Assembly: GCA_934096705.1 (NCBI GenBank)
Contig: CAKOMR010000001.1
Coordinates: 53,364-117,363 of the forward strand
From: an uncultured Bacilli bacterium
Lineage (GTDB): Bacteria > Bacillota_I > Bacilli_A > RF39 > UBA660
DNA: 64,000 nucleotides
Direction of reading: 5' to 3'
Part shown: positions 24,097-53,638 of the stretch, in pieces
Numbering within the stretch: the first letter of the stretch is position 1
Layout: every line of letters begins with the position of its first letter
Position numbers and translations under genes: made by a program
Notes under the pieces: model-generated
Databases searched by the model: none
What the model was told of the DNA's origin: nothing
Seen by the model: the letters and a program-made list of their open reading frames with translations, nothing else

Positions 24097-26322
24097 ATGA
24101 AAAAGAAAATGTTATTTTTATTAACAGGAATAGTAATATGCTTAGCTATTTTATTCGGCTTTTATTACAATAATAAAACATTTTCCTTAAATAAAAGCAA
24201 TGCTAAAAAAAATGAAAAAATTGATAAACAAATGGCAATATTACTCAAAAGGTATGGAACTGATGAGTATTTAAATGTAGATTCAGATGAAGTTCCTAAG
24301 GGAAGCTATGTACTTAACAAAGAAAAATCAAATTGCGAAAATGGTGGTTCTGTTGTTAGTTATAATACTAAAACTGGTGCTATTGCTTTATCAATTGTTG
24401 GAAGTGATAAGTGTAATTTGTATTTTGATGAAATTGCTACTTTTTCAAGCATTTGTGCTGATGAAGACGATTTGTACACATGTTATAATAACAAGAAAGA
24501 TAAATTTACTGATATTGATTCTGTAAGTGGACCTTATGCTGGAATGTATAGATATTATGGTAAAGATGTTAATAATTATGTTAGCTTAGATGGAATGCTT
24601 TTTAGAATTATTGGCATTACTGATGAATCAAAAACGAATACAGATGTAGCTTTAAATCGAGGACAATTAAAATTAATAAAACCAGAAATAATTGATACTA
24701 CTTCTTGGTCAAATACTTTTGTTGATACGATTTTAAATAATACTAGTATTATACCATCATCCTGGACTAATAAAATAACTAAACAAAAATTTTATGATAA
24801 TGATTTGGATAATAGTGGTTATGCTCCTGGTTACACTGCTGAAATAAAACTTAGTTTAATGTATGATGATGACTTATATTATAGTGTGAAAGATGGTGTA
24901 AATTATTGCTATGGTTCAGGAACTTGTGCAAATTCATGGCTAAATTATGGTTATAACGAATGGACTGGAAGTAGAGCTGGATTTGATGGTATATGTTGGT
25001 ATATTCTTTCTATTACTGCAAATGGAAGTATTACTGATACAGAGGAAACGTCTTCTTTGGCAAGAAGAATAGTATTTTATTTAAAACCTAGTATAAAAAT
25101 TACAGGTGGTACTGGAGAAAAAGATAATCCTTATATACTTGGCGATAGTAATAAAACGTATGATTTAATTGTTCAGCCAGTTGCTCCTAAAATAGTTTCT
25201 GTAGTAGCAAATTATGATAGTACTATAACTGTTAAAGCTACAGATGAAAATGGCCTTTCAAGTTATTGTGTTAATCAAAGTAGTACAGATACAAGCTCAT
25301 GTACATGGATTAATAACACAAACACTACTTTTACAACATCTGTAATTCAAACTCCAGGAGATTATTATGTACATGTAAAAGATGTTGATAATTTAATTAC
25401 TCATTCATCCAAAATTACAATAGTTGGAGAAACATTATATCAAAGATTATTAAAAAATGTTCCGAATGGACTTAACACAACAGTTAATTATGGAATGTAT
25501 CGTTTTGTTGGTAATATTACAGATGACGATACATCAAATGCTGGAAAACTTGATAATTATATTTGCCTTGGAGCATATGATAAAGCAACATGCGTTTCAG
25601 ATCCAGATAAATATATGTATAGAATTATTGGCCTTGTAAAAGAAGATAATACGGGAACTAAACATGAAGAGGGAGAAATAAAAATAATTAAATATACTAA
25701 AGTCGGCAAATATCATAAATGGTCCGGTGGAACTATGAATAATGATGGTTTTATTAATCAAAATAATTATTTAGATTCATCTTTATGGACTGGACGTGTA
25801 CTAATTGGAACTAGTCCCTGTAATGCTACAACAGCTGACAATAGATGTACTATTACTTGGAGTCAAAGTACACTTAGATACTCAAGTGGTACTGATTATT
25901 CATTAAATGGTCCATCAAATTCATTTTTAAGTAGTATAAATTTTAAAGACAAAATAATTAGTGTTAAATGGCATAATCCTAAGTCGACTACTTATTCAGT
26001 AGATACTGAGTATTCTAGCACTAATATTGGAAACACTAACTATATAGGCCTACTATATGAGAATGATTATAAACAAGGAGGTTCTTGGCTGAATAAGTCT
26101 GGCTATACACTATATAATTATGGGCTATACTATAATGGTTCATACCATTTCAAAGTTGGAACTACTCCGTCTTCAGTGGATGATTATTATCTATGGCTTA
26201 AATCAGATGGAAAATGGGATACATATGGACATAATTATGTTAAACCGGTATTTTATTTGAATAGATATACTACATATAAATCAGGGAGTGGTACTTACGC
26301 TGATCCATTTATAATCAATTAA
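24097..26322 (+). CDS. Large secreted/surface protein (741 aa), paralog of the 730-aa and 487-aa surface proteins, with two C-type-lectin-like end modules
   Basis: N-terminal TM/signal and Y/N/T-rich sequence. The Cys-bracketed module NKEKSNCENGG...GSDKCNLYFDE is shared with the 42948 ORF. Modules ending RIVFYLKPSIKITGGTGEKDNPYIL and VKPVFYLNRYTTYKSGSGTYADPFIIN parallel the VR end of the 51446 ORF. Confidence 0.5.
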   Translation: MKKKMLFLLTGIVICLAILFGFYYNNKTFSLNKSNAKKNEKIDKQMAILLKRYGTDEYLNVDSDEVPKGSYVLNKEKSNCENGGSVVSYNTKTGAIALSIVGSDKCNLYFDEIATFSSICADEDDLYTCYNNKKDKFTDIDSVSGPYAGMYRYYGKDVNNYVSLDGMLFRIIGITDESKTNTDVALNRGQLKLIKPEIIDTTSWSNTFVDTILNNTSIIPSSWTNKITKQKFYDNDLDNSGYAPGYTAEIKLSLMYDDDLYYSVKDGVNYCYGSGTCANSWLNYGYNEWTGSRAGFDGICWYILSITANGSITDTEETSSLARRIVFYLKPSIKITGGTGEKDNPYILGDSNKTYDLIVQPVAPKIVSVVANYDSTITVKATDENGLSSYCVNQSSTDTSSCTWINNTNTTFTTSVIQTPGDYYVHVKDVDNLITHSSKITIVGETLYQRLLKNVPNGLNTTVNYGMYRFVGNITDDDTSNAGKLDNYICLGAYDKATCVSDPDKYMYRIIGLVKEDNTGTKHEEGEIKIIKYTKVGKYHKWSGGTMNNDGFINQNNYLDSSLWTGRVLIGTSPCNATTADNRCTITWSQSTLRYSSGTDYSLNGPSNSFLSSINFKDKIISVKWHNPKSTTYSVDTEYSSTNIGNTNYIGLLYENDYKQGGSWLNKSGYTLYNYGLYYNGSYHFKVGTTPSSVDDYYLWLKSDGKWDTYGHNYVKPVFYLNRYTTYKSGSGTYADPFIIN

Positions 26323-26324
26323 AA

Positions 26325-26352
26325 AATTGTAAGAATTAACTTACAATTTTTT
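26325..26352. terminator. Bidirectional terminator between convergent genes
   Basis: aaaaaattgtaagaattaacttacaatttttttt. Confidence 0.55.
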
Positions 26353-26973
26353 TTATAATTTTCTATAAAGCCCAATTGCTATACCAAGTATTTTACAATC
26401 AGGTAAAATAATAGGGGACATTGTGTCATTTTCTGGTTGCAGTCTTATATGTCCATTTTCCTTATAAAATCTTTTTAATGTAACTTCATTTTCAAGAGTC
26501 ATAGCAACTACAATTTGTCCATTATGAGCACTATTTGTTTTTTTTATTATCACGTAGTCATTGTCATAAATTCCTGCATTAATCATACTTTCTCCGGAAA
26601 CATGTAATGTAAATACTTCTTCATTTTTAGGTATTAAACTTGCAGGTAAATCAAAAAATTCATTTGGTGTTTCAATTGCTGTAATAGGGGAACCTGCAGT
26701 AATTTTTCCAAGAAGCGGTACTTTAACAACATCTTCATTTCTTTCATCATATTCATTTTCTACGAGCAATGATATAGTTCTAAATTTATTATTTGTTGAA
26801 GTAATGTAACCTTTATTTTCTAAATTTTTTATATGAACAAACACTGTTGCTGGACTAGAAAGGTTAACACCATCGCATATTTCCCTTATAGTAGGGGAAT
26901 ACCCATATTTTGCGTTATATTTTTTTATATATTCTAAAATGTCATTTTGCCTTTTGGTTAATTTTTTATCCAC
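26353..26973 (-). CDS. lexA: LexA repressor
   Basis: N-terminal wHTH LTKRQNDILEYIKKY...GYSPTIREI, and a C-terminal S24 peptidase with GESMINAGI...VVAMT..EVTLKRF (Ser/Lys dyad). GTG start is preceded by AAGGAG. Confidence 0.9.
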   Translation of the reverse strand: MDKKLTKRQNDILEYIKKYNAKYGYSPTIREICDGVNLSSPATVFVHIKNLENKGYITSTNNKFRTISLLVENEYDERNEDVVKVPLLGKITAGSPITAIETPNEFFDLPASLIPKNEEVFTLHVSGESMINAGIYDNDYVIIKKTNSAHNGQIVVAMTLENEVTLKRFYKENGHIRLQPENDTMSPIILPDCKILGIAIGLYRKL

Positions 26974-27001
26974 TTTTTATCTTTCTCCTTTTGATATTTT
27001 A

Positions 27002-27078
27002 ATTTTACAATAGAAGTTGTAAAATGTCAAACAAATGTTTTTATTTTAATTGACACGAACAATTATTTGTATTAAAAT
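27002..27078. promoter_or_regulatory. Divergent lexA / small-ORF promoter region with a putative LexA (Cheo-like) operator
   Basis: Minus-strand TTGACA(27026-27031)-18-TAAAAT(27002-27007) for lexA. Plus-strand TTGACA(27051-27056)-16-TAAAAT(27073-27078). AAAC-aaat-GTTT (27029-27040) resembles GAAC-N4-GTTC and overlaps the lexA -35. A CGAACA half-site lies in the plus-strand promoter spacer. An 8-bp inverted repeat ttttacaa/ttgtaaaa is at 27003-27024. Confidence 0.4.
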
Positions 27079-27095
27079 TAAAAATGAAAGAGGCG

Positions 27096-27245: not shown

Positions 27246-27292
27246 GTTTATTTTATAGGAAATTTATGATAAACTATAAAATAGGAAGTGAA

Positions 27293-29325: not shown

Positions 29326-29751
29326 ATGAGGGATATGATGAGAAAGTTTTATGTTTTTAATATTAATAAAGAAATGAGTGTACTTGCGAAAGATAGTCCA
29401 TATATGTTATATAAAAGTTTTGAAACAATTTATAATAGTAATAAAAAAGATTTAAATATGGCACAAAACCTTTATGAACAGATGGCTATGAGAATAAATC
29501 AAAATGTGATAAATCAAAAAATTTATGCAGCAAATAAAGATAATCAATTTTATTATTTAGTGGGAAATGTTCATCATTACTATAATAAATATAAAGGTGA
29601 AGAAGAACAGTTGACAGTTAAAAATTCTTTTTTATCTTCAGTGGGAAATAGTAACAATTTAGTTTTGCTTAAGTCTTTAACCAATTATAATTTTTTTGTT
29701 TGTGATTTTGAGAATAAGGATTATTTTTGGCTTGATGAGATTTGCTGTTAA
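29326..29751 (+). CDS. Hypothetical protein, possibly SirA-like (YneE family) sporulation inhibitor of replication
   Basis: Position tkt-X-yneF mirrors B. subtilis tkt-sirA(yneE)-yneF. The C-terminal CDFENKDYFWLDE resembles SirA ..DFNSKRYGWL.. Overall similarity is weak. Confidence 0.35.
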   Translation: MRDMMRKFYVFNINKEMSVLAKDSPYMLYKSFETIYNSNKKDLNMAQNLYEQMAMRINQNVINQKIYAANKDNQFYYLVGNVHHYYNKYKGEEEQLTVKNSFLSSVGNSNNLVLLKSLTNYNFFVCDFENKDYFWLDEICC

Positions 29752-31138: not shown

Positions 31139-32974
31139 ATGTTAAAGGTACTTAATAAAAAATATGAAAAATTACATATTTTTAATTTACCATTTAATAC
31201 ATTAATAGAACATGTATTTTCAAACAATTTATACTTTCTTTTTGATGATGAAACATTTTGCAGATACATAGTTGAAAATTTAAAAAAAATAGACTCAAAG
31301 TATTTATTAAAAATACTTTCTATTATAAATATAACAAAATATATTAGAATGGTTGATTTAATAGAAATATTTTATTTACTTGATGATGAAGAAAAAATGG
31401 CTTTATTAAATATGCCACATATTCAAAAATTTTTCTTTACAAAACATTTTTTAGGATATAAAGCACTTGATTTAAAACTTAGTAGTTTAGATAGTTATAA
31501 AAGACTTCTTGAACTATTTCCTGATGAAGAAAAAAGAGTAATCATTTTAAGGGGAATTAAAGATGAAGAATTTGTTGTAAATTATATTAAATCTTGTAAC
31601 TTTACTGAAAGTCATTTGTTTGGTATAGTTTCAAATTTTTCAAAAGATGAAAATATTATTCCTTTTCTTAAATTTTTTACATCCAATCATAGATCGTCAC
31701 TTATAATAAAAATGCATTCTGAAGAATATAAAAAAGCTCATTTTAATGAAATGGTTTTATCTGATCAATTAAAATTTATATTTACCCAAAATGATGATGT
31801 TAAATGTGAGTTTATAGAAAATGGTTTTTATCCAGAATATATTATTCCCTCATTAACAGATTTAAATAAATTATTTACTTACTTCTTAAGTTTAAAAACT
31901 TACGATAAACAACTTATAGTTTTACAAAAAGTAAAAGATGATAATATAAAATTCGGACTTTTTCAAGTAATGAATTTAGAAAATCATTATATTGATGTTC
32001 TTTTATATTTATATAGTGTTGTAACTACTTTGGAAGTTAAAAAGAAAATTAGTGGTTTAATTGATGACAAAGGTATTATTGAAGCATTAAAAAGTAGTAA
32101 AAAAAGTCCTAAGGTTCTTACTGATGATATAGAACTTCAGTTTTCTCCATTAGTAGATGAAAAAATGACAATTGGAATTGAACTTGAATGTTCAAATGCA
32201 AATAATGATGCATATATATCTATAAAAAAACTTTTGTCTAAATGGGAAATGAAAGAAGAAATAACTGTTCCAAATGGAGTTGAAATAACTTCTCCAGTTT
32301 TAAATTATAACCCAAAATCTTTAAAAGAATTAAAATATATTTGTTTGTTTTTACAAAGAAATAATTTTTCTGTAAATGAAAATTGTGGTGGACATATTCA
32401 TATTGGTTTTGATTATTTTGATGATATAGTGCAACTACAAATGTTTTATTATTTATATGTTTATTGTGAAGACATTATATCATTAATGGTTAATAGATGT
32501 GGCTCTATTATAAGACCTTGTGCTTTAACTAATGCAAGACCGATAAAAAGCATGATGATAAAAAATTTTGGAAAATATATGTCTTTTACAAATTTATCCA
32601 TTGAAGGTTTTGTTGCAACAATGAAAGAACTTCAACATGATAAATACACATCTGTTAATTTACAAAATGCATTATCACCTCAGAAAAATACAATTGAATT
32701 TAGAATACCTAATGGTGAAATTGATTTTGATGAACTTAATTATAATATAATATTTATTACGAGACTAATGAGTTTTTCAAAAAAAATATTTTCTGTTCCA
32801 TTAGATAGGAATACTTTAAGAAAAATACTTTCACTAAGTGAAATTACACAAATGACCGATAGAAGAGACATATTACTAGATTTGATGTTTACAGAAACCG
32901 ATTTAAAAAATGTATATTTTGATAGATTTGAAAGTAATTTAGAATTAAATAGAGAAATAAATCCAAAAATATAA
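31139..32974 (+). CDS. Large protein with an N-terminal helical-repeat region and a C-terminal putative amidoligase (Amidoligase_2/GS-like) domain
   Basis: C-terminal TIGIELEC....GVEITSPVL.....L......L......V.ENCGGHIHIG ... NTIEFRIPNGEIDFDELNYNIIFITRL matches the amidoligase_2 pattern (GxExE ... CG.HVH ... TiEFR.f.gT.d). Confidence 0.5.
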   Translation: MLKVLNKKYEKLHIFNLPFNTLIEHVFSNNLYFLFDDETFCRYIVENLKKIDSKYLLKILSIINITKYIRMVDLIEIFYLLDDEEKMALLNMPHIQKFFFTKHFLGYKALDLKLSSLDSYKRLLELFPDEEKRVIILRGIKDEEFVVNYIKSCNFTESHLFGIVSNFSKDENIIPFLKFFTSNHRSSLIIKMHSEEYKKAHFNEMVLSDQLKFIFTQNDDVKCEFIENGFYPEYIIPSLTDLNKLFTYFLSLKTYDKQLIVLQKVKDDNIKFGLFQVMNLENHYIDVLLYLYSVVTTLEVKKKISGLIDDKGIIEALKSSKKSPKVLTDDIELQFSPLVDEKMTIGIELECSNANNDAYISIKKLLSKWEMKEEITVPNGVEITSPVLNYNPKSLKELKYICLFLQRNNFSVNENCGGHIHIGFDYFDDIVQLQMFYYLYVYCEDIISLMVNRCGSIIRPCALTNARPIKSMMIKNFGKYMSFTNLSIEGFVATMKELQHDKYTSVNLQNALSPQKNTIEFRIPNGEIDFDELNYNIIFITRLMSFSKKIFSVPLDRNTLRKILSLSEITQMTDRRDILLDLMFTETDLKNVYFDRFESNLELNREINPKI

Positions 32975-33468: not shown

Positions 33469-34158
33469 GTGATGAACACAAAGATAAAGTTATCAAGAAA
33501 TGAAATGATTGTTACTTTTATTGCTATTTTTTTACTTATAACCCTTGTATCAGCTGCAACATTTGCATATTTTGGTTCTTTTTCTACGAACTTAAATAAT
33601 AAATTACACGTAAATATTACAACAGAAAATGGTGTTACATCAACATTTACTACGGGGGGAGCTATATTAAATTTAGAGGTACCTCCGGCAAGAATGAATC
33701 AACTTAATAATGGTACATTAGCTGCAAGTAGTAATGCTAATTTATCAGTTAAATTAAATTCTGCATCTCCGAGTATAAAAATGCAGTGTACTTATGATAT
33801 TGTTTTTGAATATCAAAATGGTTCTAAAGTATACGGTCTTGGTGATGAGGTAGTAACAACTGCTGGTGAAAAGGAAATTACTATGAAAGTTATTGGTAAT
33901 AGTGGAACTAATAAATTTGCTGAAGAAAAAAACTTTAATTTTAATACGGCAGATGGTTGGGTAAGCGCTACTTCTGGTAAAGGAGCAAACATTACTTTAG
34001 TTAGCGATGCCAAAATTACTAGTGAAGGTATAGAAAATGTTTCTGAGTGGAATTTTGAATTTAAATTCTATAATTTAGCAGCACGCCAAACTGGGCTTGA
34101 AAATAAAACTTTTGTGGGGAAAATATATGCTGTAAGTAAGGGCTGTATAAATATTTAA
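33469..34158 (+). CDS. Secreted protein with a SipW-cognate-type signal peptide, TasA/camelysin-like. It is a paralog of the N-terminal domain of the 51446 ORF.
   Basis: N-terminal region ...LVSAATFAYFGSFSTNL parallels the TasA/CalY GTFAFFSD SipW-type signal-peptide motif. It shares ..KMQCTYDIVFEY..G.KVYGLGDEVVTTAGEKEITMKVIG.SGTNKFAEEKNFNF with the 51446 ORF (..KCTYDIIFEY...TLQAIGPNGTSDYFEEKNFNL). Confidence 0.4.
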   Translation: MMNTKIKLSRNEMIVTFIAIFLLITLVSAATFAYFGSFSTNLNNKLHVNITTENGVTSTFTTGGAILNLEVPPARMNQLNNGTLAASSNANLSVKLNSASPSIKMQCTYDIVFEYQNGSKVYGLGDEVVTTAGEKEITMKVIGNSGTNKFAEEKNFNFNTADGWVSATSGKGANITLVSDAKITSEGIENVSEWNFEFKFYNLAARQTGLENKTFVGKIYAVSKGCINI

Positions 34159-34258: not shown

Positions 34259-35815
34259 GTGATGAAAAAAACAAATAAAAAAACAAAAATAATTATAATA
34301 AGTATTTTAACTATTATTTTGATTATTGGAATTATAATAACAATCAAATCCAAAAAGAATTTGACTATAAATACAAATGTAAAAAAATTTGAGTCTGAAT
34401 ATAAAATGCTTGATAATAATTTACAATTATTAGATTTATATTTTTTAAAAGAGGAAAATAATGAAGAAAATATTGTTTATAGTCCAATTTCAATCAAATA
34501 TGCTTTAGCAATGCTTTCAGATGCGTCATTAGGTGATAGTAAAAGTCAAATTGATGCTGTTTTAGGTAAGTATAATTTCAAAAAATATGATAATAGTAAA
34601 AATGTTTCTTTTGCAAATGCCTTATTTATAAAAGATAGCTTTAAGCAGTATGTTAAAAATGATTATATAACTCAAATAAAAAATAAATATAATGGTGAAG
34701 TAATATATGATAGTTTTAATAGTCCAAATACTATTAATTCCTGGGTTTCTAATAAAACATTTAACTTAATAAATAATTTAATTGATGATGTTTCAAATAA
34801 TGATTTTATGTTAATAAATGCTCTTGCAATTGATATGAATTGGAACTATTTAATTCAACCAGTATTAACTGATAATAATAGTTCTGATTTTCAAAAGAAA
34901 ATATATGATAAAAAGCATTTTGATATATCAGCTTGGCATGTTGATTATCTTCATGAAGATTTAAATTCAATGTATATTAGTTCAATTGCTGCCGATGAAT
35001 ATCCTGTAATGAAATTCAATGATAAAGATGTAAGTTCTTTAAAGTTTGGTGCTTCAATTAATAATTATGATATTGTTAATGATTTAGGAAAAGAAAATAT
35101 TCGTAATGAAATCACTAAAGAATATGAGAAATGGGTTAGCGATGATTATTGTGAAGTTCATAAATATGAAGAAAGTAACACATTTGTCGATAAATTTATA
35201 AAAGAATTAGATTCAAATTATAAGGATATAGCAAGTTCAACAGATTTTAATTTTTATGTTGATGATAATGTTAAAGCTTTTGCCAAATACTTAAATGAAT
35301 ATAATGGTCTTAATTTAGAATATATTGGTATTATGCCTATAAATGAAAATTTAACTAGCTATATTAATACAGTAAAAGTTGAAGAAATAAAAAATATATT
35401 TAATAATCTAAAAGAAATAAAAATTGATAATTTTGAGAAGGGATATATTACACAAATCAAAGGAAATATTCCATTATTTAAGTTTGATTATGAACTTAAT
35501 CTCGAAAATGATTTAAAAAATATAGGTATTACGGACGTATTTAATGAAAATGCAAATCTTTCCAATTTAACAAATGAAAAAGCTTTAATTAATCCTGTTA
35601 TTCATAAAACTACGATTGAGTTTTCAAATGAGGGAATAAAAGCTTCTGCTGCAACTTCCATTGGAGGCTTTGGAGCAATAGATTGTAGTTTTGAACATTT
35701 ATATAAAGTACCTGTAAAAGTAATAGACTTGACTTTTGATAAACCTTTTATATTTTTTATCAGGAATATTAAAACAGGAGAAATTTGGTTTACTGGAGCT
35801 GTATATAGTCCATAA
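34259..35815 (+). CDS. Serpin-family serine protease inhibitor, membrane-anchored, with insertions
   Basis: N-terminal TM, then IVYSPISIKYALAMLSDASLGDSKSQI. Hinge/RCL NEGIKASAATSIGG. Canonical serpin C-terminus DKPFIFFIRNIKTGEIWFTGAVYSP. Confidence 0.8.
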   Translation: MMKKTNKKTKIIIISILTIILIIGIIITIKSKKNLTINTNVKKFESEYKMLDNNLQLLDLYFLKEENNEENIVYSPISIKYALAMLSDASLGDSKSQIDAVLGKYNFKKYDNSKNVSFANALFIKDSFKQYVKNDYITQIKNKYNGEVIYDSFNSPNTINSWVSNKTFNLINNLIDDVSNNDFMLINALAIDMNWNYLIQPVLTDNNSSDFQKKIYDKKHFDISAWHVDYLHEDLNSMYISSIAADEYPVMKFNDKDVSSLKFGASINNYDIVNDLGKENIRNEITKEYEKWVSDDYCEVHKYEESNTFVDKFIKELDSNYKDIASSTDFNFYVDDNVKAFAKYLNEYNGLNLEYIGIMPINENLTSYINTVKVEEIKNIFNNLKEIKIDNFEKGYITQIKGNIPLFKFDYELNLENDLKNIGITDVFNENANLSNLTNEKALINPVIHKTTIEFSNEGIKASAATSIGGFGAIDCSFEHLYKVPVKVIDLTFDKPFIFFIRNIKTGEIWFTGAVYSP

Positions 35816-42947: not shown

Positions 42948-44411
42948 ATGAATAAAAATAAGTTTAAAACATTTTTAAATAACTTAAAAATTGCTTTTAA
43001 TAAAAATAAGAAAAAAAGTATTACTATTTTAGTTATTTTAATTCTTTCAATTATATCAAGTGTAACACTTATTGCATATTCTTTTTATGTAAATAGATCT
43101 CAAAATTTAATTATATCTGGTATTGCTTCGCTTGATTCAAGTGATGTAAAAATTGATATTTATAGAGAAGATCGTGATTCAAATGGTACAGGAATTGGAA
43201 CATATTCACTTTCATATTATGTTCCAGGGGAAACAACTTATACTTATAATACAAGTAAAACATCTTGCGATGATGGAGTGACTATAAATAGTTTTAGTAA
43301 TAGCGTTTTTGCTGTAAATGCTACGAAAAAAGGAAAATGCAAAGTATACTTTGATGCTATAGACGGCTATATCGAAGATTATGTTGTTAATTTATTTGTT
43401 CAACAAACTCCAGGAAATACTGATAATAGCAATTATAATCAAATGGGTAAATTGCCTAAAATAGAAACGGGATATCATTATATTATTAATTCTTCGAAAA
43501 CTAGTTGTAGCCCTACAGCAACAGTATCCATTTCAGGAACCAATATAGTTGTAGAAACAACACAAAAGACAACTTGCACAGTTTATGTAGATAAAGAAGT
43601 ATATACTGCGGTACCTACAATAAGTACAGTATCTGTAAATGGTTATAAAATAAATACAACAATTACAGATGATCTTGGGATTCAAGAATATGGATATAGT
43701 ACTAGTAATACTGTCGAACCATCAGTTTATAAATCGATTAAAGAATCCAAAACTGTTACGATATCTGATGTTTTAGAAAATGGAACATATTATTTGTGGG
43801 CTAAAAATCTAGCTGGAAATACTTCTGTATCATCTGCATTTACTGTTAGTGTTACATTAACATTTGCAATAAATGATCTTGGCGTTGGAAGTAATTATGT
43901 TTATGCAACATTTACTTCACCTACAGGTATTGGGGGATATGGAATTGCTTATGATCAATATACAAAACCAACTGTTCAAACACCTAATGATATGTATAAT
44001 GCAAAAGTGTATAAATTTTATGAATCGTTACCATACAATGGAACATATTATTTATATTTATACAATAAAAGTAATGCTTCAGTACATAAACAATTTACTT
44101 TAAAAACATCAACATCTCCAACAATATCAAGTGTTATGTGGTATGGTAGTACTGGAACAAATAAAAAGTTAGGGTTTACACTTAAAGATAGTCAAGGATT
44201 AGCTGGCTTTCAAGTTGTGTCTTCAATAAGCAAATATAGTAGTAATAACTGGCTAAGTATTAGTGGAACATCTTTAACAGTTCCGGATGGTTATGGCGAT
44301 GGATCGAGAAAATTCGGTTATATTGGAATGAATTATATTTTTGTAAAGAATGAGCTTGGCGAAATAACTTTTTATGCTAAAAAAGTTAGTAGCTCAAACG
44401 CAGAAATATAA
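42948..44411 (+). CDS. Secreted repetitive surface protein (487 aa), paralog family member
   Basis: N-terminal TM/signal. Two Cys-bracketed modules (TSKTSCDDGVTINSFSNSVFAVNATKKGKCKVYFD and SSKTSCSPTATVSISGTNIVVETTQKTTCTVYVDK) resemble the module in the 24097 ORF. The rest is Thr/Ser/Tyr-rich. Confidence 0.45.
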   Translation: MNKNKFKTFLNNLKIAFNKNKKKSITILVILILSIISSVTLIAYSFYVNRSQNLIISGIASLDSSDVKIDIYREDRDSNGTGIGTYSLSYYVPGETTYTYNTSKTSCDDGVTINSFSNSVFAVNATKKGKCKVYFDAIDGYIEDYVVNLFVQQTPGNTDNSNYNQMGKLPKIETGYHYIINSSKTSCSPTATVSISGTNIVVETTQKTTCTVYVDKEVYTAVPTISTVSVNGYKINTTITDDLGIQEYGYSTSNTVEPSVYKSIKESKTVTISDVLENGTYYLWAKNLAGNTSVSSAFTVSVTLTFAINDLGVGSNYVYATFTSPTGIGGYGIAYDQYTKPTVQTPNDMYNAKVYKFYESLPYNGTYYLYLYNKSNASVHKQFTLKTSTSPTISSVMWYGSTGTNKKLGFTLKDSQGLAGFQVVSSISKYSSNNWLSISGTSLTVPDGYGDGSRKFGYIGMNYIFVKNELGEITFYAKKVSSSNAEI

Positions 44412-44445: not shown

Positions 44446-44676
44446 ATGAATAGTATGTTTTTATCTGAAATGCAAGAAAAAGAAATTATATCAATAGAAA
44501 CAGGATTAAATTATGGACATATTGTTGATTGTGAAATAAATGAAGAAGGTAAAATAATTTCTTTTGTAGCGGAAAATCGAAAAATTTTTAAAAAGCCACT
44601 TAGTAATAATGAAGTAACTTTTACATACTTAGATATAGTTAAAGTAGGAAAAGATGTAATACTTGTTAAAGTTTAA
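44446..44676 (+). CDS. YlmC/YmxH-family PRC-barrel sporulation protein
   Basis: LSEMQEKEIISIETGLNYGHIVDCEIN.EGKII.....IVKVGKDVILVKV parallels B. subtilis YlmC. The start is uncertain (44446, 44455 or 44470). Confidence 0.5.
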   Translation: MNSMFLSEMQEKEIISIETGLNYGHIVDCEINEEGKIISFVAENRKIFKKPLSNNEVTFTYLDIVKVGKDVILVKV

Positions 44677-44698
44677 AAAATTGTTTATAATAAATAAT

Positions 44699-45172
44699 AT
44701 GAAAAAGAAAATTATTATTTATAGTGCATTAATTTTTTTGATTGATCAAATAAGTAAATTTGTATTAGATAAAGTTTTAGTTCTTGGAAAAAGCGTAAAG
44801 ATTTTTGATAGATTTTTATATATAACAAAAGTGTATAATGATGGAGTAAGTTTTAGTATGCTTACTGGTAAAAGATTTTTTATAATATTGATAAGTATTT
44901 TAATATTAGTTTTCCTATGTTTATATATGAAAAAATTTAAAAATAATAAACGTAATATAATTGCTTTTTCTTGTATCTATGGTGGACTAATTGGTAATTT
45001 AATTGATAGAATAATTCATGGTTATGTAATTGACTTTATAGATTTTTATATTTTTAATTACAATTATCCTATATTTAATATAGCAGATGCATCAATATGT
45101 ATTGGTGTATGTTTATTAATATATAGTATTTATTTAGGGGAAGATAATGAAGTTAGTAGTAAAGGAAAATAA
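44699..45172 (+). CDS. lspA: Lipoprotein signal peptidase II
   Basis: YNDGVSFSML, GNLIDRI, FNIADASI conserved LspA motifs. Confidence 0.8.
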   Translation: MKKKIIIYSALIFLIDQISKFVLDKVLVLGKSVKIFDRFLYITKVYNDGVSFSMLTGKRFFIILISILILVFLCLYMKKFKNNKRNIIAFSCIYGGLIGNLIDRIIHGYVIDFIDFYIFNYNYPIFNIADASICIGVCLLIYSIYLGEDNEVSSKGK

Positions 45173-46037: not shown

Positions 46038-47174
46038 ATGGATAAAGTAAACGTTAGGAAACAAGATCAAATATTAATGAGTTTAGTACATTATTTTGTT
46101 ACAAAAGAAGGCTATTCTCCGATATTTGTTCAAGGTGTAAAAGATGAAATATGGCTTGAAAATGTTGATGGACCATATAGAATAATTAGAATTAATAATA
46201 ATTATATACATAATGAAGAACAATATACGTTTGAACAGTTTAAAATAAAAAACGTTATGAAACAAATAAAAAAGAAAACTTTATCGTTTTCAATTAATAC
46301 TTTAAATATAGATTTAAATGTTTCTGATAGAGTTAAAATTGAACCTAATAAGGATATAGATAATGTAAGTGTTCATGAACTTGAGGATATTAAAAAGAAC
46401 GAAGAAATTATTTCTGTATTTCCAAGTATTAAATCTGATTTATATGAAAGTGGTAATAGTTTAGATTTACTTTTAAATGTTACCAAAGACATAAATAATA
46501 AAACTGAAACAGATAATAAAAAGTTTGAAAAAATATTTTCTAAGAAAAAACTTGTTGTTACATATTTAATAATGCTTATATGTATTTTAATGTATGTTTT
46601 AGTAGTTTTCATGGGTGCAAGTAACAAAGCTTACCTTCTTTTAGGAGCTAATCTAAAAAGTCTTGTAAAAAGTGGTCAAATATATAGACTTATTACATAT
46701 GCATTTTTGCATGGCGGTTTAGTTCATTTAATAACTAATATGTATTCACTATATATCATTGGAAGTCAAATTGAAAATAATTATGGAAAATTAAAATTTA
46801 TTTTTATATACTTAGTAAGTGCTTTAACTGGAGGACTTCTTAGTGCAATATTTAATAATAATATAAGTATTGGTGCAAGTGGAGCAATTTTTGGTCTTCT
46901 TGGAGCTCTTGTATATTTTGGCTTTCATTTTAGATTATATTTATCAGATGCTCTTAAAACAAGAATTATTCCAGTTATATTAATTAACCTTTTGATTGGA
47001 TTTATGGTTACAGGTATTGATAATGCATGTCATATAGGTGGTCTTATAGGTGGATATTTAGCTGCGATGGCAGTAGGTATTCCTGAAGTTGAAAATAAAA
47101 AAGATAAAATTAATGGAGTAATACTTCTATTGATATATATAGCATTTATGAGTTATTTATTATTTTTTAGATAA
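46038..47174 (+). CDS. Rhomboid-family intramembrane serine protease with an N-terminal cytoplasmic domain (GluP/YqgP-like)
   Basis: Catalytic GASGAIFGLLGA and ...HIGGLIGGYL (Ser/His dyad) within a 6-TM core. Confidence 0.7.
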   Translation: MDKVNVRKQDQILMSLVHYFVTKEGYSPIFVQGVKDEIWLENVDGPYRIIRINNNYIHNEEQYTFEQFKIKNVMKQIKKKTLSFSINTLNIDLNVSDRVKIEPNKDIDNVSVHELEDIKKNEEIISVFPSIKSDLYESGNSLDLLLNVTKDINNKTETDNKKFEKIFSKKKLVVTYLIMLICILMYVLVVFMGASNKAYLLLGANLKSLVKSGQIYRLITYAFLHGGLVHLITNMYSLYIIGSQIENNYGKLKFIFIYLVSALTGGLLSAIFNNNISIGASGAIFGLLGALVYFGFHFRLYLSDALKTRIIPVILINLLIGFMVTGIDNACHIGGLIGGYLAAMAVGIPEVENKKDKINGVILLLIYIAFMSYLLFFR

Positions 47175-48078: not shown

Positions 48079-48079
48079 T

Positions 48080-49696: not shown

Positions 49697-49981
49697 ATGG
49701 AGCTTTTAAAAGAATTTTTAGTTTTGTTTATATCTAAAGTATTAAATATTTCTTATCATGAAGTAGATGATAATTTAGTTATATTAGATAATGGAATAAG
49801 TGATAATCTAAATGTAAAAAATAAACAAACGGATTTATTATATGAAAGTGTTGGCATAATAATAAACATCGAAGATAATGGAAGTATGACAAAAGTAGTT
49901 AAAGATAAAAATACTGCTTATATTTGTCAGCTTTATCTAAGGCAAATTAAAATAATTTCAGCTATTTATTACAAAATATAA
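49697..49981 (+). CDS. Hypothetical small protein upstream of sigG
   Basis: ORF only. Confidence 0.25.
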   Translation: MELLKEFLVLFISKVLNISYHEVDDNLVILDNGISDNLNVKNKQTDLLYESVGIIINIEDNGSMTKVVKDKNTAYICQLYLRQIKIISAIYYKI

Positions 49982-50119: not shown

Positions 50120-50896
50120 ATGAGTAATTACAAAGTTGATATAACCGGAATAAATACAAGTACTTTAAAATGTCTAACTCATGAAGAAAATGTTAAATTA
50201 TTTAAGATGCTTCAAAATGGAGATTTAAAGGCAAAAGAATATTTAGTAAATGGTAATTTAAAATTAGTTCTATCTGTATTAAAGGGATTTAATAAAAAAT
50301 CAATTAATCAGGATGATTTATTTCAAGTTGGCGTTATTGGCTTAATAAAAGCGATAGATAATTTTGACTTATCTTATAACTTAAAACTATCTACATATGC
50401 AGTTCCTTTGATAGCAGGAGAAATAAAAAAATATTTAAGGGATAATACACAAATGCGTGTTGCAAGAAGTATAAAAGATGATGCATATAGAATATTAAAA
50501 TTTAAAGAAGAGTATATTAGTGTTCATGGAAAAGAACCACTTTTTAGTGAAATAGCTTCATCTTTAGGAATAAGTGAATATGATGTAGGTTTTGCTTTAG
50601 ATGCCTTAAAAGAACCAGTAAGTATATTTGCTCCAATATATAATGATGGGGGAGATACAATTTATTTAGAAGATCAGTTAGCGGATACAAAAAGTGCAAA
50701 CTATGATAAAGATATGTTAATATCTATGTATAAAGCTTTAAAGAAAATTAAAGATAGAGAAAAGTCTGTTTTAATGGAAAGATATGTTATTGGTAAAACT
50801 CAAACTGAAATAGCAAATGATTTAAATATTTCTCAAGCTCAAGTATCAAGAATAGAAAAAACAGCTTTAGTAAAAGTAAGGAAACTTATTAAATGA
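50120..50896 (+). CDS. sigG: Sporulation sigma factor sigma-G
   Basis: YLVNGNLKLVLSVLKGF....DDLFQVGVIGLIKAIDNFDLS.N.KLSTYAVPLIAGEIKKYLRDN...PVSIFAPIYNDGGDTIYL...TQTEIANDLNISQAQVSRIEK matches SigG nearly block for block. Confidence 0.85.
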   Translation: MSNYKVDITGINTSTLKCLTHEENVKLFKMLQNGDLKAKEYLVNGNLKLVLSVLKGFNKKSINQDDLFQVGVIGLIKAIDNFDLSYNLKLSTYAVPLIAGEIKKYLRDNTQMRVARSIKDDAYRILKFKEEYISVHGKEPLFSEIASSLGISEYDVGFALDALKEPVSIFAPIYNDGGDTIYLEDQLADTKSANYDKDMLISMYKALKKIKDREKSVLMERYVIGKTQTEIANDLNISQAQVSRIEKTALVKVRKLIK

Positions 50897-51408
50897 TAGC
50901 GTTATGTATTCAAATATATTTTGCTAGAATTTTAGATGTTACATTAAATACCATAAGAACATTTTATACGTTAAAAGGAAAATCAATTATATCTACGATT
51001 ATTTCCTTTTTTGAGGTTTTAGTTTGGTTTTTAGTGGCAAGGGAAGCATTAAATATAAATTTAAATTCAGCGTGGATACCGATTAGTTATGCTCTTGGTT
51101 ATGCTACCGGTAATTTAATCGGTTCATTTATTTCTAATAATTATATCAAAACTGAAATAAATGTAACTGTCATTACAAAGAAAAATAATAATTTAATAGA
51201 TATTTTAAGGGATAATGATTATGAAATATCAATTATTGACTTAAAAAATAGTTTTGATAATATAAAAAAACAAATGCTTATTATTGAAACAAACAAAAAA
51301 GATTATAAAAGACTTGTTCATATAATAAAATCTTTTGATATAAACTCGTATATCATGGTAAGTGATATAAAGAAAATTGAAAAATATACCTTGGAAAAAT
51401 CATTTTAG
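50893..51408 (+). CDS. UPF0316/DUF2179-family membrane protein
   Basis: LNTIRTFYTLKGKSIISTIISFFEVLVWFLVA parallels the UPF0316 N-terminus. C-terminal DUF2179-like domain. Confidence 0.55.
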   Translation: MIALCIQIYFARILDVTLNTIRTFYTLKGKSIISTIISFFEVLVWFLVAREALNINLNSAWIPISYALGYATGNLIGSFISNNYIKTEINVTVITKKNNNLIDILRDNDYEISIIDLKNSFDNIKKQMLIIETNKKDYKRLVHIIKSFDINSYIMVSDIKKIEKYTLEKSF

Positions 51409-51445
51409 TGTGTTATCATAATTATTAGAAGATAGGGTATTAATT

Positions 51446-53638
51446 ATGAATAAATTAGATAAAAAAAGTTTAATTATTGTTATTTCATCAGTATTATTAA
51501 TAATAGCTGTTTCGGCAGTATCATTTGCCTTTTTAGGAAGTTTTCAAAGAACGCTTAATAATGCAAATGTAAATATCGTAGCTCAAAATGTTAATAATAC
51601 ATATTTTAATGTAACAAATAATGTATCATTTTCTTTAGATGTAGACCCAACAAAAATGAATGAAACAAATAATGGAAATTATGTGGCAGAAAATACGGCA
51701 ATACTCGATGTATCAATAAATCCAGCAGCAGATGGTTTAAGTGTCAAATGTACTTATGATATCATATTTGAATATGATTCATCTTCGAATATATACGGGG
51801 TAAGTCCAACCCCAGTAACCACAGGAGCAAGTAAAGAGCTTACTTTGCAAGCAATTGGGCCAAACGGAACAAGTGATTATTTTGAAGAAAAGAACTTTAA
51901 TTTAACAAGTAGGAAAAAAACAATAGTAAGTGGGGCAGAGATAGTAAATTCAATAGCAGATATGCCAACGACTCATAGATGGAAATTTGTAAATAGATTT
52001 TATAATCTAAATTTAGATCAATCAGCTCTAGCAAATAAATCATTTAAAGGAAGATATTATGTAGCAAATGTATCATGTGATAGATATGAAGATAATACAA
52101 TATATTCATTAATAAAAAATAGATATAAAAATAATGATACATATGTAAAACTATATAGTGAGTCAGATGCCAGCACATATGCAAATCCAGTATATTATTT
52201 TAATGGAGCAGTAGAAGATAACAATGTTCTTTTTGCAGGCTTTTGTTGGAAGATAGTAAGAACTACTGAAACTGGTGGAGTAAAAATGGTATATAATGGT
52301 ACTTTAATTGATACACCTAGTTCAGTAACACCTTTAGAAGAATCACAATATGTAAATGTAACTAATGATGCAACATATCCATATACATTTGATAGTACCA
52401 ATAAGACATGGACAAGTACAAATCATGATAATGATAAAACAGGAACAATAACTTTTACAGTTTCTGAGCCTGGAGATTATTATTTAAACTATACAGTGTC
52501 ATCAGAAACATGTTGTGATAAAGCAGAATTTTTAAAGGGTACTAACTCCCTAGGAAAATTCGCCAATTCGGGAACAATTGCTCTTACCGGGCTTACAACA
52601 TCAGATGTTATTACTGTAAAATATTCGAAAGATGGTTCAGCATCATCCGGAAGTGATAATGTAATATTTAGCTTAGGAAAAGCAATTGGTGAAGTTAAAA
52701 AATCATGTAATAACAGCGGTACAGCTACACAACTGGCAAGTACAAAAGCATTTAATAGTTCTTCTTCACCGGCATATGTGGGATATATGTATAACACAGT
52801 TTATAAATATTCAAGTAAGAGTATGTCATCACAATCAAATATAGTATTTGGAAATTCATTTAATTATAATAGTAATAATGGTACTTATACATTAACTGGT
52901 ACAAAAACAATAGTAACTTGGTCAAGTGGCTATAATACAATCAATAGTAATCATTATACATGTTTTACTACAGGAACAACATGTACATCACTTTATTATG
53001 TATATTATACAAATTCAAGTACTGCATATTATATAACGCTTTCAAATGGTAAATCGGTAGACGATGCATTAAATGAAATGTTATATGCAGATGATGTAAA
53101 TAAAACTGATAGTACAATAAAAGCATATATAGACACATGGTATAAAGACAACATGACAAGTTATACTGATAAACTTGAAGACACAGTATTTTGTAATGAC
53201 AGGACAATGTATAACCAATCAGCAAATGGATGGAATCCAAATGGAGGAAGTACAACAGAAACATTACGATTTAAAAATTATAATACCAATTATAGCTTAG
53301 CGTGTACAAATGAAACAGATAGATTTAGTGTGAGCAATAATAAAGCAAAATTAACATACCCAGTTGGTCTACTATCCGCACCGGAGGTGTGGCTAGCATA
53401 TAGAAATGCCAATTATAGTTCATATTATTTGAATACCGGTAATATGTACTGGCTTGCTTCCCCTATCAGCTTCAACAACAACAACGCCAGCGGCAGGTAC
53501 GTGGCCACCGCGGGTAACATAAGCGGCAGCAACGTCAGCATCATCAGTATGGAGGGCGTGCGTCCGGCCGTTTCCTTGAAGCCTGGCACCGGGTATACAG
53601 GTGATGGGTCGTATACAAATCCGTTCGTAGTAGAATAG
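51446..53638 (+). CDS. Large surface protein (730 aa): SipW-type signal peptide, TasA/camelysin-like N-terminal domain, and a C-terminal C-type-lectin-like domain carrying a DGR-type variable region
   Basis: N-terminus ...AVSAVSFAFLGSF. Homology to the 33469 ORF. C-terminus WLASPISFNNNNASGRYVATAGNISGSNVSIISMEGVRPAVSLKPGTGYTGDGSYTNPFVVE. The 3' end is strongly GC-rich relative to the genome and is repeated downstream with A-specific differences. Confidence 0.6.
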   Translation: MNKLDKKSLIIVISSVLLIIAVSAVSFAFLGSFQRTLNNANVNIVAQNVNNTYFNVTNNVSFSLDVDPTKMNETNNGNYVAENTAILDVSINPAADGLSVKCTYDIIFEYDSSSNIYGVSPTPVTTGASKELTLQAIGPNGTSDYFEEKNFNLTSRKKTIVSGAEIVNSIADMPTTHRWKFVNRFYNLNLDQSALANKSFKGRYYVANVSCDRYEDNTIYSLIKNRYKNNDTYVKLYSESDASTYANPVYYFNGAVEDNNVLFAGFCWKIVRTTETGGVKMVYNGTLIDTPSSVTPLEESQYVNVTNDATYPYTFDSTNKTWTSTNHDNDKTGTITFTVSEPGDYYLNYTVSSETCCDKAEFLKGTNSLGKFANSGTIALTGLTTSDVITVKYSKDGSASSGSDNVIFSLGKAIGEVKKSCNNSGTATQLASTKAFNSSSSPAYVGYMYNTVYKYSSKSMSSQSNIVFGNSFNYNSNNGTYTLTGTKTIVTWSSGYNTINSNHYTCFTTGTTCTSLYYVYYTNSSTAYYITLSNGKSVDDALNEMLYADDVNKTDSTIKAYIDTWYKDNMTSYTDKLEDTVFCNDRTMYNQSANGWNPNGGSTTETLRFKNYNTNYSLACTNETDRFSVSNNKAKLTYPVGLLSAPEVWLAYRNANYSSYYLNTGNMYWLASPISFNNNNASGRYVATAGNISGSNVSIISMEGVRPAVSLKPGTGYTGDGSYTNPFVVE
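53450..53575 (+). repeat. DGR-like variable repeat (VR) at the 3' end of the 51446 ORF
   Basis: 126 nt homologous to 53799-53918. Over the first 30 aligned codons there are 13 mismatches, and 12 fall where the downstream copy has adenine. Confidence 0.65.

Follow-up and report, generated by a model that had tools for sequence, protein, structure and literature searches.

Domain-shuffled, probably surface-exposed proteins with an invertible promoter and a diversity-generating retroelement in an uncultured gut Bacilli bacterium

Four genes scattered among core genes of an uncultured gut Bacilli bacterium encode proteins with recognizably shared parts, which raises the question of whether they form one family and what the proteins do at the cell surface. 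A preliminary description took them for paralogous TasA-like fibre proteins or adhesins with SipW-type signals and lectin-like ends, one phase-variable and one hypervariable. The window (the whole stretch of DNA analysed, 64,000 nucleotides) originates from a human-gut (Hadza) metagenome, and its host is a spore-forming bacterium with a GC content of 26-27%. Pfam annotation of the ORFs revealed that the window also encodes core genes, spore-coat genes, LexA and NusA. The four genes, here A to D, are all present in the window's ORF list with their translations, all on the forward strand, and each has core housekeeping genes on both sides. In another species the D orthologue has a conserved position, flanked by the same core genes, and the place of C is occupied by a 487-aa ORF, a candidate counterpart by its position.

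Three pairs of proteins have modules in common. B (33469..34158; 229 aa, or 228 aa if the start is the ATG at 33472) and D (51446..53638; 730 aa) share a 190-aa N-terminal domain, to which the resemblance previously noticed between them corresponds. A (24097..26322; 741 aa) and C (42948..44411; 487 aa) share a Cys-bracketed module, and A and D share ends of the DUF6273 (C-lectin-like) type. Module profiles gave no common module for B and A or for C and D; the single cross-match, of a mixed D N-terminal profile to C (E = 1.6e-6), we attribute to the inclusion of C-type N-termini in it. All four sequence observations of the preliminary description are statistically upheld, and its “paralogous family” stands in part: the sharing is significant, but it describes a network of shuffled modules rather than one family. 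This shuffling is visible among the homologues of D (at least 1,649 matches), in which the same head is found behind B-type, A-type, C-type and ...SYAYFKVS-type N-termini. Two relatives with a C-type N-terminus (P0064 and P0074) have a D-type lectin-like C-terminal domain. We consider it probable that A to D are lineage-specific, heavily expanded surface or secreted proteins built from shuffled modules, with an inverton, a diversity-generating retroelement (DGR) and, in a first class, a SipW-cognate signal.

In the class 1 export module (B and D), a conserved hydrophobic signal, which ends in (S/A)(A/V)(T/S)FA(Y/F)(F/L)GSF, would lead into a beta-sandwich of 190 aa with a disulphide bond. B is the stand-alone form of this N-domain, with an export signal at aa 1-33 (ending ...VSAATFA) and a beta-sandwich at aa 34-229 that includes the invariant C107 and C226. 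Its AF2 model (pLDDT 68) has a transmembrane helix at 10-33, a low-confidence linker at 26-45 and nine strands. D, as judged from its translation, homologues and AF2 model (pLDDT 82), has a B-type signal at aa 1-28 (...AVSAVSFA), a B-type N-domain at aa 29-214 and a DUF6273-related head at aa 215-730. The N-domain family comprises 1,200 clusters at 50% identity. The domain is N-terminal throughout and frequently stands alone in proteins of 200-250 aa, and half of the members have long C-terminal extensions. The N-terminus of the relatives is ultra-conserved (...VVGATFAYF), the hydrophobic segment being better conserved than the mature domain.

In the class 2 export module (A and C), one or two Cys-bracketed modules of 60 aa would come after a plain transmembrane helix. 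Ig-like spacers are probable further modules of the proteins. Translations and pairwise and profile matches place in A a transmembrane helix (aa 5-25), a Cys-bracketed module (aa 41-115), a first DUF6273-like domain (aa ~149-349), an Ig-like spacer (aa ~356-443) and a second DUF6273-like domain (aa ~450-741). C has a transmembrane helix at aa ~24-46, and its remainder behind the Cys-bracketed part is ~270 aa, beta-rich and Ig-like, without a lectin-like end. The Cys-bracketed module, as described earlier, is detected between A and C pairwise (E = 8e-4). An iterated profile of the module of A matched no window ORF besides C, which it found twice, at aa 84-138 (nt 43197-43361; iE 4e-9) and aa 158-216 (nt 43419-43595; iE 1.6e-6), and C therefore has two such modules in tandem.

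The two DUF6273-like domains of A align to one another (E = 1e-4), and its homologue P0150, which matches A over aa 353-740 (E = 8e-19) and aa 149-349 (E = 2e-5), scores above the Pfam DUF6273 gathering threshold (30.6 vs 23.5 bits). Homologues of D match the last 55 positions of the DUF6273 model with 21.6-23.4 bits; A and D themselves did not reach the threshold in the Pfam search. The ends of A and D match weakly in pairwise comparison (E = 0.055). A profile of D residues 600-730 (121 homologues) matched A alone (full E = 3.4e-7), landing exactly on the internal (aa 278-348) and C-terminal (aa 705-741) modules named in the preliminary description. DUF6273 has been described as a C-lectin-like DGR target domain (PMC10743442), and the matches of the homologues, together with the DGR variable region at the end of D, agree with the lectin-like ends proposed earlier. 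Foldseek with the full-length D model returned generic beta-sandwich matches only and did not confirm a lectin fold structurally. We infer that these ends are C-lectin-like ligand-binding heads, of which A would have two, D one large one, and B and C none. The head of D has an inserted beta-sandwich (aa ~288-420, nt 52307-52705), which is likely the part of the model that matches a phage protein of 157 aa with a serine protease VesC annotation (TMt 0.60).

The gene called hypervariable is D, the target of a DGR with a variable region (VR) and a template region (TR) that differ in an adenine-specific manner. The VR (53450..53570, forward strand) encodes aa 669-709 of D, from WLASP to GVRP. The TR (53799..53920, forward strand) begins 160 nt 3′ of the D stop codon. 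This non-coding, AAC-rich stretch reads WLASPNNFNNNNANGRNVNTTGNMNNNNVNNAGSARP in the frame of the VR. Their 91-nt core is 86% identical, and 12 of the 13 mismatches are TR adenines. In other genomes, TR adenines explain 10 of 12 differences to the VR of an orthologue (L032) and 17 of 22 to that of a paralogue (L024), and D paralogues and orthologues vary in precisely the VR stretch. A GC-rich hairpin with a 10-bp stem and a 4-nt loop (53680..53703, forward strand; dG -11.7 kcal/mol, z = -4.3) lies 42 nt after the D stop and has no T-run after it. By analogy with the BPP-1 DGR it is possibly a target-recognition hairpin, or else a terminator stem. The DGR would rewrite the ligand-binding loop of D. 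Neither a reverse transcriptase nor Avd was found in the 51 kb upstream or the 10 kb downstream of D and the TR, and the reverse transcriptase may be provided from another place in the genome.

D resembles DGR proteins with a C-type-lectin fold or DUF6273 (Bordetella phage Mtd, Treponema TvpA and the phage “tentaclins”; PMC10743442) in the position of its VR, at the very C-terminus of a DUF6273-related domain, and in its AAC-rich TR, the adenine-specific VR/TR differences and the GC-rich hairpin after the VR. Unlike these, D is chromosomal and among core genes, its TR directly follows the target with no reverse transcriptase or Avd nearby, its ~515-aa head has the inserted beta-sandwich and follows a fused N-terminal domain whose signal looks SipW-type, and many scattered paralogues apparently derive from a near-identical TR.

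The gene called phase-variable is A, which has an inverton upstream (23717..24063) that occurs in both orientations in public metagenomes. Perfect 28-nt inverted repeats (23717-23744 and 24036-24063) enclose 291 bp, giving 347 bp with the repeats, and are the window's sole exact inverted repeat of at least 18 nt with a gap of 80-700 nt. In the metagenome of another sample (L002) the 347-bp segment is the exact reverse complement of that in the window, between flanks of 100% identity; a second locus (L001) has the orientation of the window. The inverton includes a sigma-70-like promoter (23822..23849, forward strand; TTGTCA-16-TATAAT, 11 of 12 consensus matches), which faces A in the window, presumably the ON orientation, and A may be switched on and off by the 347-bp invertible promoter. 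Related repeats are found upstream of paralogues in another species; the consensus is TTCTTAAA(A/T)CTA(A/T)TACATTTA, and we know of no recombinase that fits it. Inverton-controlled surface proteins are familiar from gut bacteria, as in the cwpV switch of Clostridioides difficile and the capsule promoters of Bacteroides. The inverton of A is like these in its perfect repeats with a strong promoter-like site facing the gene, its two orientations in public assemblies and the related repeats at paralogues, but differs in that no recombinase gene is adjacent. No recombinase, reverse transcriptase, SipW or LepB-type peptidase was detected in the window or in ~745 kb of close-relative loci.

The N-terminus of A and C is a plain transmembrane helix plus Cys module, and so a SipW-type signal can apply to B and D only. 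For these the claim is supported indirectly: relatives match the TIGR04088 model and proteins of sipW loci share the signal, but B and D themselves miss the model, which the preliminary description had suggested applying, even at E ≤ 10. Their motif ends in GSF, the usual ending being S/T-D/A. TIGR04088 is matched by 12 of 145 family relatives, more frequently than any other NCBIfam model; P0294 alone exceeds the curated cut-off (20.9 vs 19 bits), and one relative carries a SipW-like-signal name in IMG. In three related low-GC gut contigs, genes for Sec11/SipW-type peptidases (SGSMVP...THRI...KGDAN; human SEC11A match, E = 1e-5) are located 3-6 kb from genes with a near-identical signal, whose products start MEKKN.(I/V)LLTVIAV(A/S)TLLVAVVGATFAYF. 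A sipW gene is nearby in just 3 unique loci among 80 metagenome loci, and its neighbour proteins have the signal alone in common with the B family (mature domains E > 1 after signal removal). With a TasA sequence checked against PDB 8AUR, hhalign aligns ...GATFAYF in register with ...GGTWAAF, the cleavage site of TasA. As noted before, the window has no SipW-type peptidase gene, according to a motif scan, tblastn with a SipW homologue and Pfam on ORFs of at least 90 aa (outside 29326-29751, 49697-49981, 63438-63761 and opposite-strand ORFs nested in annotated genes). Judged by sequence, the class 1 signal is most likely a diverged SipW-cognate signal, and a Sec11/SipW-type peptidase with its gene elsewhere would cut it after ...TFA.

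Fibre formation by the family is plausible. The stricter reading proposed at first, in which B-type proteins assemble by donor-strand exchange into a true TasA/BsaA-type, SipW-dependent matrix fibre or pilus, with D-type proteins as its built-in adhesive subunits, appears to us somewhat doubtful. It is consistent with the signal evidence (TIGR04088 matches, IMG name and sipW loci), with the occurrence of the N-domain both stand-alone and fused in each MAG, and with tandem arrays of 2-4 B-family genes in about one third of metagenome loci (several of these being one locus from different assemblies) and in L039. The post-signal stretch has low confidence in the AF2 models of B and D and would suit a donor strand of the kind that TasA and BsaA have (PMC9674648; PMC11580942). 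A 194-aa protein of the L113 sipW cluster matches the TasA N-terminal motif in register (E = 8e-4) and, with its signal removed, is weakly similar to the B-family mature domain (E = 1e-4). Bacteroides type V pili with DGR-diversified adhesive tips (10.1101/2024.11.15.621889) offer a functional analogue, also from a gut commensal and also with an N-terminal domain both small and stand-alone and fused to a DGR-diversified lectin-like head; but the phylum differs, B and D have neither a lipoprotein signal nor the type V pilin fold, and polymerisation of B-type proteins is hypothetical.

Against true TasA-type fibres, a kinship of the mature domains with TasA or camelysin is not supported. B and D have no Peptidase_M73, TasA or BsaA match in Pfam or NCBIfam, a B-family profile search of the PDB did not retrieve TasA, hhalign aligned the signal peptide alone (mature-only probability 0.09%), and TasA is absent among the 50 best Foldseek matches in the PDB. 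B is also monocistronic amid unrelated genes, without a sipW or tapA-like partner. In comparison with TasA, CalY and BsaA (TIGR04088, TIGR04090; PMC9674648, PMC7395162, PMC11580942), the family shares the in-register motif ...G-x-T-(F/W)-A-(Y/A)-F, relatives matching TIGR04088, a near-identical signal in the sipW clusters of related contigs, and small, beta-rich proteins frequently in tandem arrays. It differs in that B and D fall below TIGR04088 detection, in mature domains for which no match to TasA was detected in sequence or fold, in its conserved disulphide pair, in having no adjacent sipW or tapA, and in the long C-terminal extensions of half of its members.

Slightly less probable, and in our view unlikely, is that the class 1 proteins start with an ordinary Sec signal or an uncleaved signal-anchor, with A to D as monomeric membrane-tethered receptors and FAYF as an aromatic membrane-interface belt. 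Ordinary AXA-like sites and an unusually conserved hydrophobic part could indicate a retained anchor, as the hydrophobic segment outdoes the mature domain in conservation like a retained functional helix. Aromatics directly follow the helix also in A, C and other paralogue classes (FGFYYNNK, IAYSFYVNR, SYAYFKVS, LTYNIYQNK), the N-termini weakly match models of single-pass membrane proteins such as FliL, MAG1140 and SAG1386, and TIGR04088 misses B and D. However, motif and helix hardly vary, although the mature domains are 25-35% identical, a pattern typical of signals that a dedicated processing enzyme recognises; proteins of sipW clusters bear a near-identical signal, and relatives match the curated TIGR04088 model.

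It is very improbable that the conserved helix is the polymerising alpha-1 helix of a pilin, as in archaeal type IV pili. The architecture is helix plus beta-sandwich, and the sole PDB returns of the family profile are archaeal pilins (8TIB, 8FJS, 6W8X and 6NAV), with ...VVGFAFGLFGAF paired with ...VVGATFAYFGSF; but these matches lack significance (E = 1.1-8.9, with high compositional bias), neither a G(-1)/F(+1)/E(+5) prepilin site nor a consistent archaeal (K/R)(G/A/S) site is present, and no pilus-assembly ATPase or prepilin peptidase occurs in the loci read (Pfam neighbours in L001-L004 and L031-L039; ORFs of L033, L113 and L110). An origin as prophage remnants, by capture of phage receptor-binding proteins by the chromosome, is the least credible alternative: DUF6273 is common in the tail proteins of phages, and DUF6273 and DGRs are frequent in receptor-binding proteins of gut phages, but genomic context disfavours it, with core housekeeping genes around A to D, the D orthologue keeping its chromosomal position in another species and no phage genes in the window, and the proteins have N-terminal export signals and the TR is unmatched in a viral contig collection.

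We conclude that the family represents undescribed, lineage-expanded variable surface adhesins made of parts of known kinds. Two independent devices would generate the variation, the 347-bp invertible promoter for A and the DGR for D. By flipping the promoter of one protein and rewriting another by retroelement, the cell would be able to vary its binding.

Four genes in the window, here called A (24097-26322, 741 aa), B (33469-34158, 229 aa), C (42948-44411, 487 aa) and D (51446-53638, 730 aa), encode the surface proteins considered here. In direct scans, none reached a Pfam or NCBIfam threshold and no match was meaningful. The surrounding DNA has 26.7% GC overall (22-33% in 2-kb windows), its genes lie mostly on one strand, and it encodes housekeeping functions (rpe, lexA, tkt, folD, glyA, thyX, mnmA, lspA, ruvAB, nusA, infB, truB and parE) and spore-coat proteins (cotE, cotJB/JC). 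A Hadza human-gut metagenome contains the sequence as well, on a 150-kb contig. Besides A-D, and unrelated to them, the window encodes two likely surface proteins: one of 878 aa (59-2695) that combines Listeria-Bacteroides repeats with a type I dockerin, and one of 377 aa (2708-3841) with a cadherin-like beta-sandwich.

B aligns to residues 1-214 of D with 39% identity (pairwise E=7e-43), and a profile of this N-domain matches only B and D among the window ORFs. A and C share a Cys-bracketed module (pairwise E=8e-4); an iterated profile of the module from A detected it twice in tandem in C (iE 4e-9 and 1.6e-6) and matched no other window ORF. The end motif linking A and D is weak in pairwise comparison (E=0.055), and a profile of the final 130 residues of D found A alone (E=3.4e-7), at both an internal and the terminal position. 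All the shared modules reported in the preliminary description are thus real, and the internal and terminal copies of the end module in A were hit at exactly the positions it had named. The same description regarded the four genes as one paralogous family, and here only the module sharing holds. Module profiles revealed nothing in common between B and A or between C and D, and a match of the D N-terminal profile on C was rejected, as it came from a sub-alignment with mixed types of N-terminus and vanished with a clean profile. Because the links are pairwise (B-D, A-C and A-D), the four genes are a set of shuffled modules rather than a single family. In the homologue lists, the C-terminal 515 residues of D recur with 60-88% identity behind at least four N-terminal types, including those of A (MKKRFILLITGIIICLG...) and of C (homologues P0064 and P0074). 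C has no lectin-like head in this genome; P0064 and P0074 have one.

A and C have neither the FAYF motif nor an AXA-like site at their N-termini, which resemble plain signal-anchors with the Cys module after them. Just downstream of C are lspA (signal peptidase II) and a rhomboid intramembrane protease gene (44663-45172 and 46038-47174). The rhomboid could in principle process single-pass anchors like those of A and C.

A word-indexed search found only nine relatives of B; a full HMMER scan with a profile of 17 N-domain sequences returned 1,200 cluster representatives (50% identity), 455 of them at E<=1e-10. The domain is N-terminal in every match, and many matches are stand-alone proteins of 200-250 aa. 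Two cysteines are conserved (C107 and C226 in B numbering), as is an FYNL...Q..L..K.F.G motif at the C-terminus. The N-terminus is the most conserved part of the family, and most of its distant members start with MEK(K/R)NT.LLTVIAVATLLVAVVGATFAYF. Around B itself, a serpin gene (34259-35815, 518 aa) lies directly downstream and an Amidoligase_2 protein (31139-32974, 611 aa) is encoded upstream, an arrangement unchanged in four contigs with an identical B protein (L001-L004).

The signals of B and D had been described as SipW-type. Neither protein, nor any of eight close relatives, matched the SipW-cognate signal model TIGR04088 (cut-off 19 bits), even at E<=10. Across 145 N-domain relatives, TIGR04088 was the NCBIfam model matched most often (12 hits). 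Ten members scored singly gave 15.4-20.9 bits, with one (P0294) above the cut-off, and another indication comes from IMG, where one member is named [quoted passage not shown] The assignment therefore stands for the family and not for B and D individually. Our reading of these sequences is that the N-terminus shared by B and D belongs to the SipW-cognate class, and that their own signal is a diverged version, ...FA(Y/F)(F/L)GSF.

Motif scans and tblastn detected no Sec11/SipW-type peptidase in the window, as noted before, or in ~745 kb of related loci. We retrieved 80 metagenome loci with the conserved signal, and three independent ones (L113/L114, L109/L110 and L119; GC 27-28%) carry a peptidase gene 3-6 kb downstream of the signal-bearing gene. 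The signal of the genes near it, MEKKN.(I/V)LLTVIAV(A/S)TLLVAVVGATFAYF, is near-identical to that of the B/D class. The peptidase has the motifs SGSMVP or SPSMEP, THR(I/V) and KGD(A/N)N, and matches human SEC11A with E=1e-5. Each cluster (L113 10001-16204, L110 10001-16773 and L119 10001-14001, all on related low-GC gut contigs) encodes a small protein with an MEKKN...GATFAYF signal, TasA-like proteins and the Sec11/SipW-type peptidase. The clusters also encode proteins with an ...ISFAYFTSG signal whose N-terminal motifs are like that of TasA (match to TasA with E=8e-4). We rejected the first genes of the clusters as full-length members of the B family: with the signal removed they gave E>1, and therefore only the signal is claimed as common. 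The sole cluster protein that keeps weak similarity to the B family without its signal is a 194-aa TasA-like protein (E=1e-4). Two TasA-like proteins of these clusters (802-866 aa) contain long arrays of DxDGDGxPD calcium-binding-type repeats, and the L110 cluster is split by a McrBC-like insertion.

No similarity of A-D to TasA was detected beyond the signal, and the kinship of the mature domains with TasA/camelysin that had been suggested gains no support. Pfam and NCBIfam searches with A-D gave no match at E<=1 to Peptidase_M73 (TasA/camelysin) or TIGR04090 (BsaA), the latter being matched by 2 of the 145 relatives at E~1e-3. Profiles of the B/D family did not find TasA in the PDB, nor did Foldseek return it among the 50 best PDB matches of the B model, which were only low-TM generic beta-sandwich matches. 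In hhalign comparisons with TasA (a sequence identical to PDB 8AUR residues 28-261), the signal peptide alone aligned, in register with the cleavage site between TWA and AF (probability 1-7.5%), and removal of the signals left no significant similarity (probability 0.09%).

The C-terminal heads of A and D had been called C-type-lectin-like, a view favored by their relatives. Published models present DUF6273 (PF19789, Pfam gathering score 23.5 bits) as a C-type-lectin-like domain, which in phage "tentaclins" is a target of diversity-generating retroelements (DGRs) (PMC10743442). A and D gave nothing against this model at E<=1. P0150, a homologue of A, passes it with 30.6 bits over model positions 20-171 of 172, and the two DUF6273-like regions of A match each other (E=1e-4) and each align to the DUF6273 region of P0150. 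Three homologues of D scored 21.6-23.4 bits, below the cut-off, over the final 55 model positions, which contain the motif WLxSP...GVRP(A/S). DUF6273 matches were found in 3 of the 145 N-domain relatives. In the AF2 model of D (pLDDT 82), a TM helix and the B-type beta-sandwich (residues 32-214) precede a large alpha/beta region, into which another beta-sandwich is inserted at ~288-420. Foldseek searches of the PDB and BFVD with the full-length model gave only low-TM generic beta-sandwich matches, except for one local match (rank 4, TMt 0.60) to a 157-aa phage protein, which probably corresponds to the inserted beta-sandwich. Searches of the PDB with three alignment profiles gave nothing significant. 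With no structural match to the heads, it is DUF6273 and the DGR that point to their lectin fold.

The DGR evidence is at the 3′ end of D, in line with the earlier suggestion that one of the four is hypervariable. Its variable region (VR; 53450-53570, + strand) has a near-repeat in non-coding DNA 349 nt downstream, the template region (TR; 53799-53920), which is AAC-rich and translates to WLASPNNFNNNNANGRNVNTTGNMNNNNVNNAGSARP. The two share a 91-nt core with 86% identity, and 12 of the 13 mismatches fall at TR adenines, which occupy 35 of the 91 TR positions (binomial chance ~1e-4). Such an adenine bias is characteristic of DGR template/variable repeat pairs and identifies D as a DGR target. 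Beyond the stop codon of D lies a GC-rich hairpin of 10 bp. TR adenines also explain differences to VR-like stretches in other genomes, 10 of 12 in an orthologue (L032) and 17 of 22 in a paralogue (L024), and across dozens of paralogues the hypervariable part is that between WLASP and GVRP. At 52001-54000, where the VR, the TR and the 3′ half of D lie, GC rises locally (0.33 vs ~0.26) and GC skew drops.

DGR cassettes have a reverse transcriptase, usually with Avd, beside the TR, and this is not the arrangement at D. Pfam and scans for YxDD and SQxxAN motifs detected no reverse transcriptase in the window, and neither it nor Avd occurs in the 51 kb upstream of the TR or the 10 kb downstream. 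Pfam annotation of neighbours revealed none within 10 kb of the orthologue of D or of two paralogues, and a check of 33 loci also found none. The exact TR sequence had no match in viral or JGI metagenome collections. As no reverse transcriptase lies near D, its orthologue or its paralogues, the enzyme would act from a distance. The VRs of many scattered paralogues and orthologues fit a near-identical template. In combination with a local TR that has no nearby reverse transcriptase, this suggests that the DGR acts in trans over long distances.

Expression of A appears to be controlled by DNA inversion. The 453-nt spacer before the gene contains perfect 28-nt inverted repeats (23717-23744 and 24036-24063), the sole such repeat in the window, which enclose a strong promoter-like site facing A (TTGTCA-16-TATAAT). 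In L002, a contig from a different sample, the 347-bp segment lies between flanks 100% identical to those of the window but is itself the exact reverse complement; L001 matches the window in orientation. DNA inversion is thereby seen directly at the population level, which bears out the earlier suggestion that one of the four genes is phase-variable. Simple-sequence repeats were rejected as the cause, as the window has none (no A/T run >=10, no G/C run >=7 and no microsatellite), so the invertible promoter segment (inverton) accounts for the phase variation instead.

Very similar inverted repeats lie at an equal distance upstream of paralogues with A-type N-termini in another species (L035 and L036). 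The consensus is TTCTTAAA(A/T)CTA(A/T)TACATTTA (~9620-9970 in L034-L036 and 23717-24063 in the window), and related repeats flank ~300-bp segments (297-304 bp) upstream of the paralogues P0047 and P0077. L034 and L035 have one gene and its downstream genes in common and differ in their upstream genes; the junction in L034 carries one repeat only, which is oppositely oriented. Invertons at different loci may have recombined here, or the repeat may mark a join made in assembly. No recombinase gene was found in the window. Judging from the related repeats, the invertons may form a regulon served by one recombinase.

The B-type domain may polymerise into fibres. B-family genes often stand in tandem arrays of 2-4, and each MAG has stand-alone and head-bearing forms of the N-domain side by side. 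Moreover, the stretch after the signal is predicted with low confidence in the AF2 models of both B and D, by analogy a possible donor strand, as the donor strands of TasA and BsaA give such segments (PMC9674648; PMC11580942). However, the hydrophobic helix is so highly conserved that a retained anchor would fit as well. A type IV pilin identity is very unlikely, given that archaeal pilin matches in the PDB profile search had E>=1.1 and that the N-termini listed contain neither a prepilin site (G-1, F/M+1, E+5) nor an archaeal class III signal. One array, at L039 (3635-7596), consists of four consecutive B-family genes (211, 220, 214 and 208 aa). It is preceded by a protein of 377 aa, the N-terminus of which (...TSYASIFSIKTNSSAQTITSGTLSV) is similar to the N-terminal motif of TasA, and it adjoins glycosyltransferase and polysaccharide deacetylase genes. 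This array may be a matrix locus.

Extended to the whole set, polymerisation would make the B-type domain the basis of a new SipW-dependent branch of donor-strand-assembled surface fibres in low-GC gut Bacilli, with lectin-headed subunits gated by invertons and diversified by a single trans-acting DGR. We consider this full scenario unlikely. Under it, the inverton family would gate the heads individually, and the reverse transcriptase of the one DGR would lie far from its many dispersed targets, of which at least one has kept a template nearby. Such fibres, if they exist, would give Gram-positive bacteria an equivalent of the DGR-diversified tips of type V pili.

The DGR-targeted C-lectin-like head, the inverton-gated surface protein and the SipW-class signal are known kinds of part. 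As far as we searched libraries and papers, there is no description of their combination in one shuffled family, the size that this family reaches in an uncultured gut lineage, its N-domain and Cys module (both unannotated), or a TR with no reverse transcriptase nearby. The family has no Pfam or NCBIfam assignment and no name in public records, and human-gut and rumen metagenomes contain thousands of its lectin-headed proteins. The conserved signal linked to SipW-type peptidases, the inverted-repeat consensus and the TR apart from its reverse transcriptase are handles that make fibre assembly and trans-acting DGR activity directly testable. In this little-known uncultured lineage, phase variation by DNA inversion and DGR mutagenesis converge on one shuffled set of surface proteins, a repertoire that is probably central to attachment to host glycans or other microbes, or to evasion of phage or antibodies.
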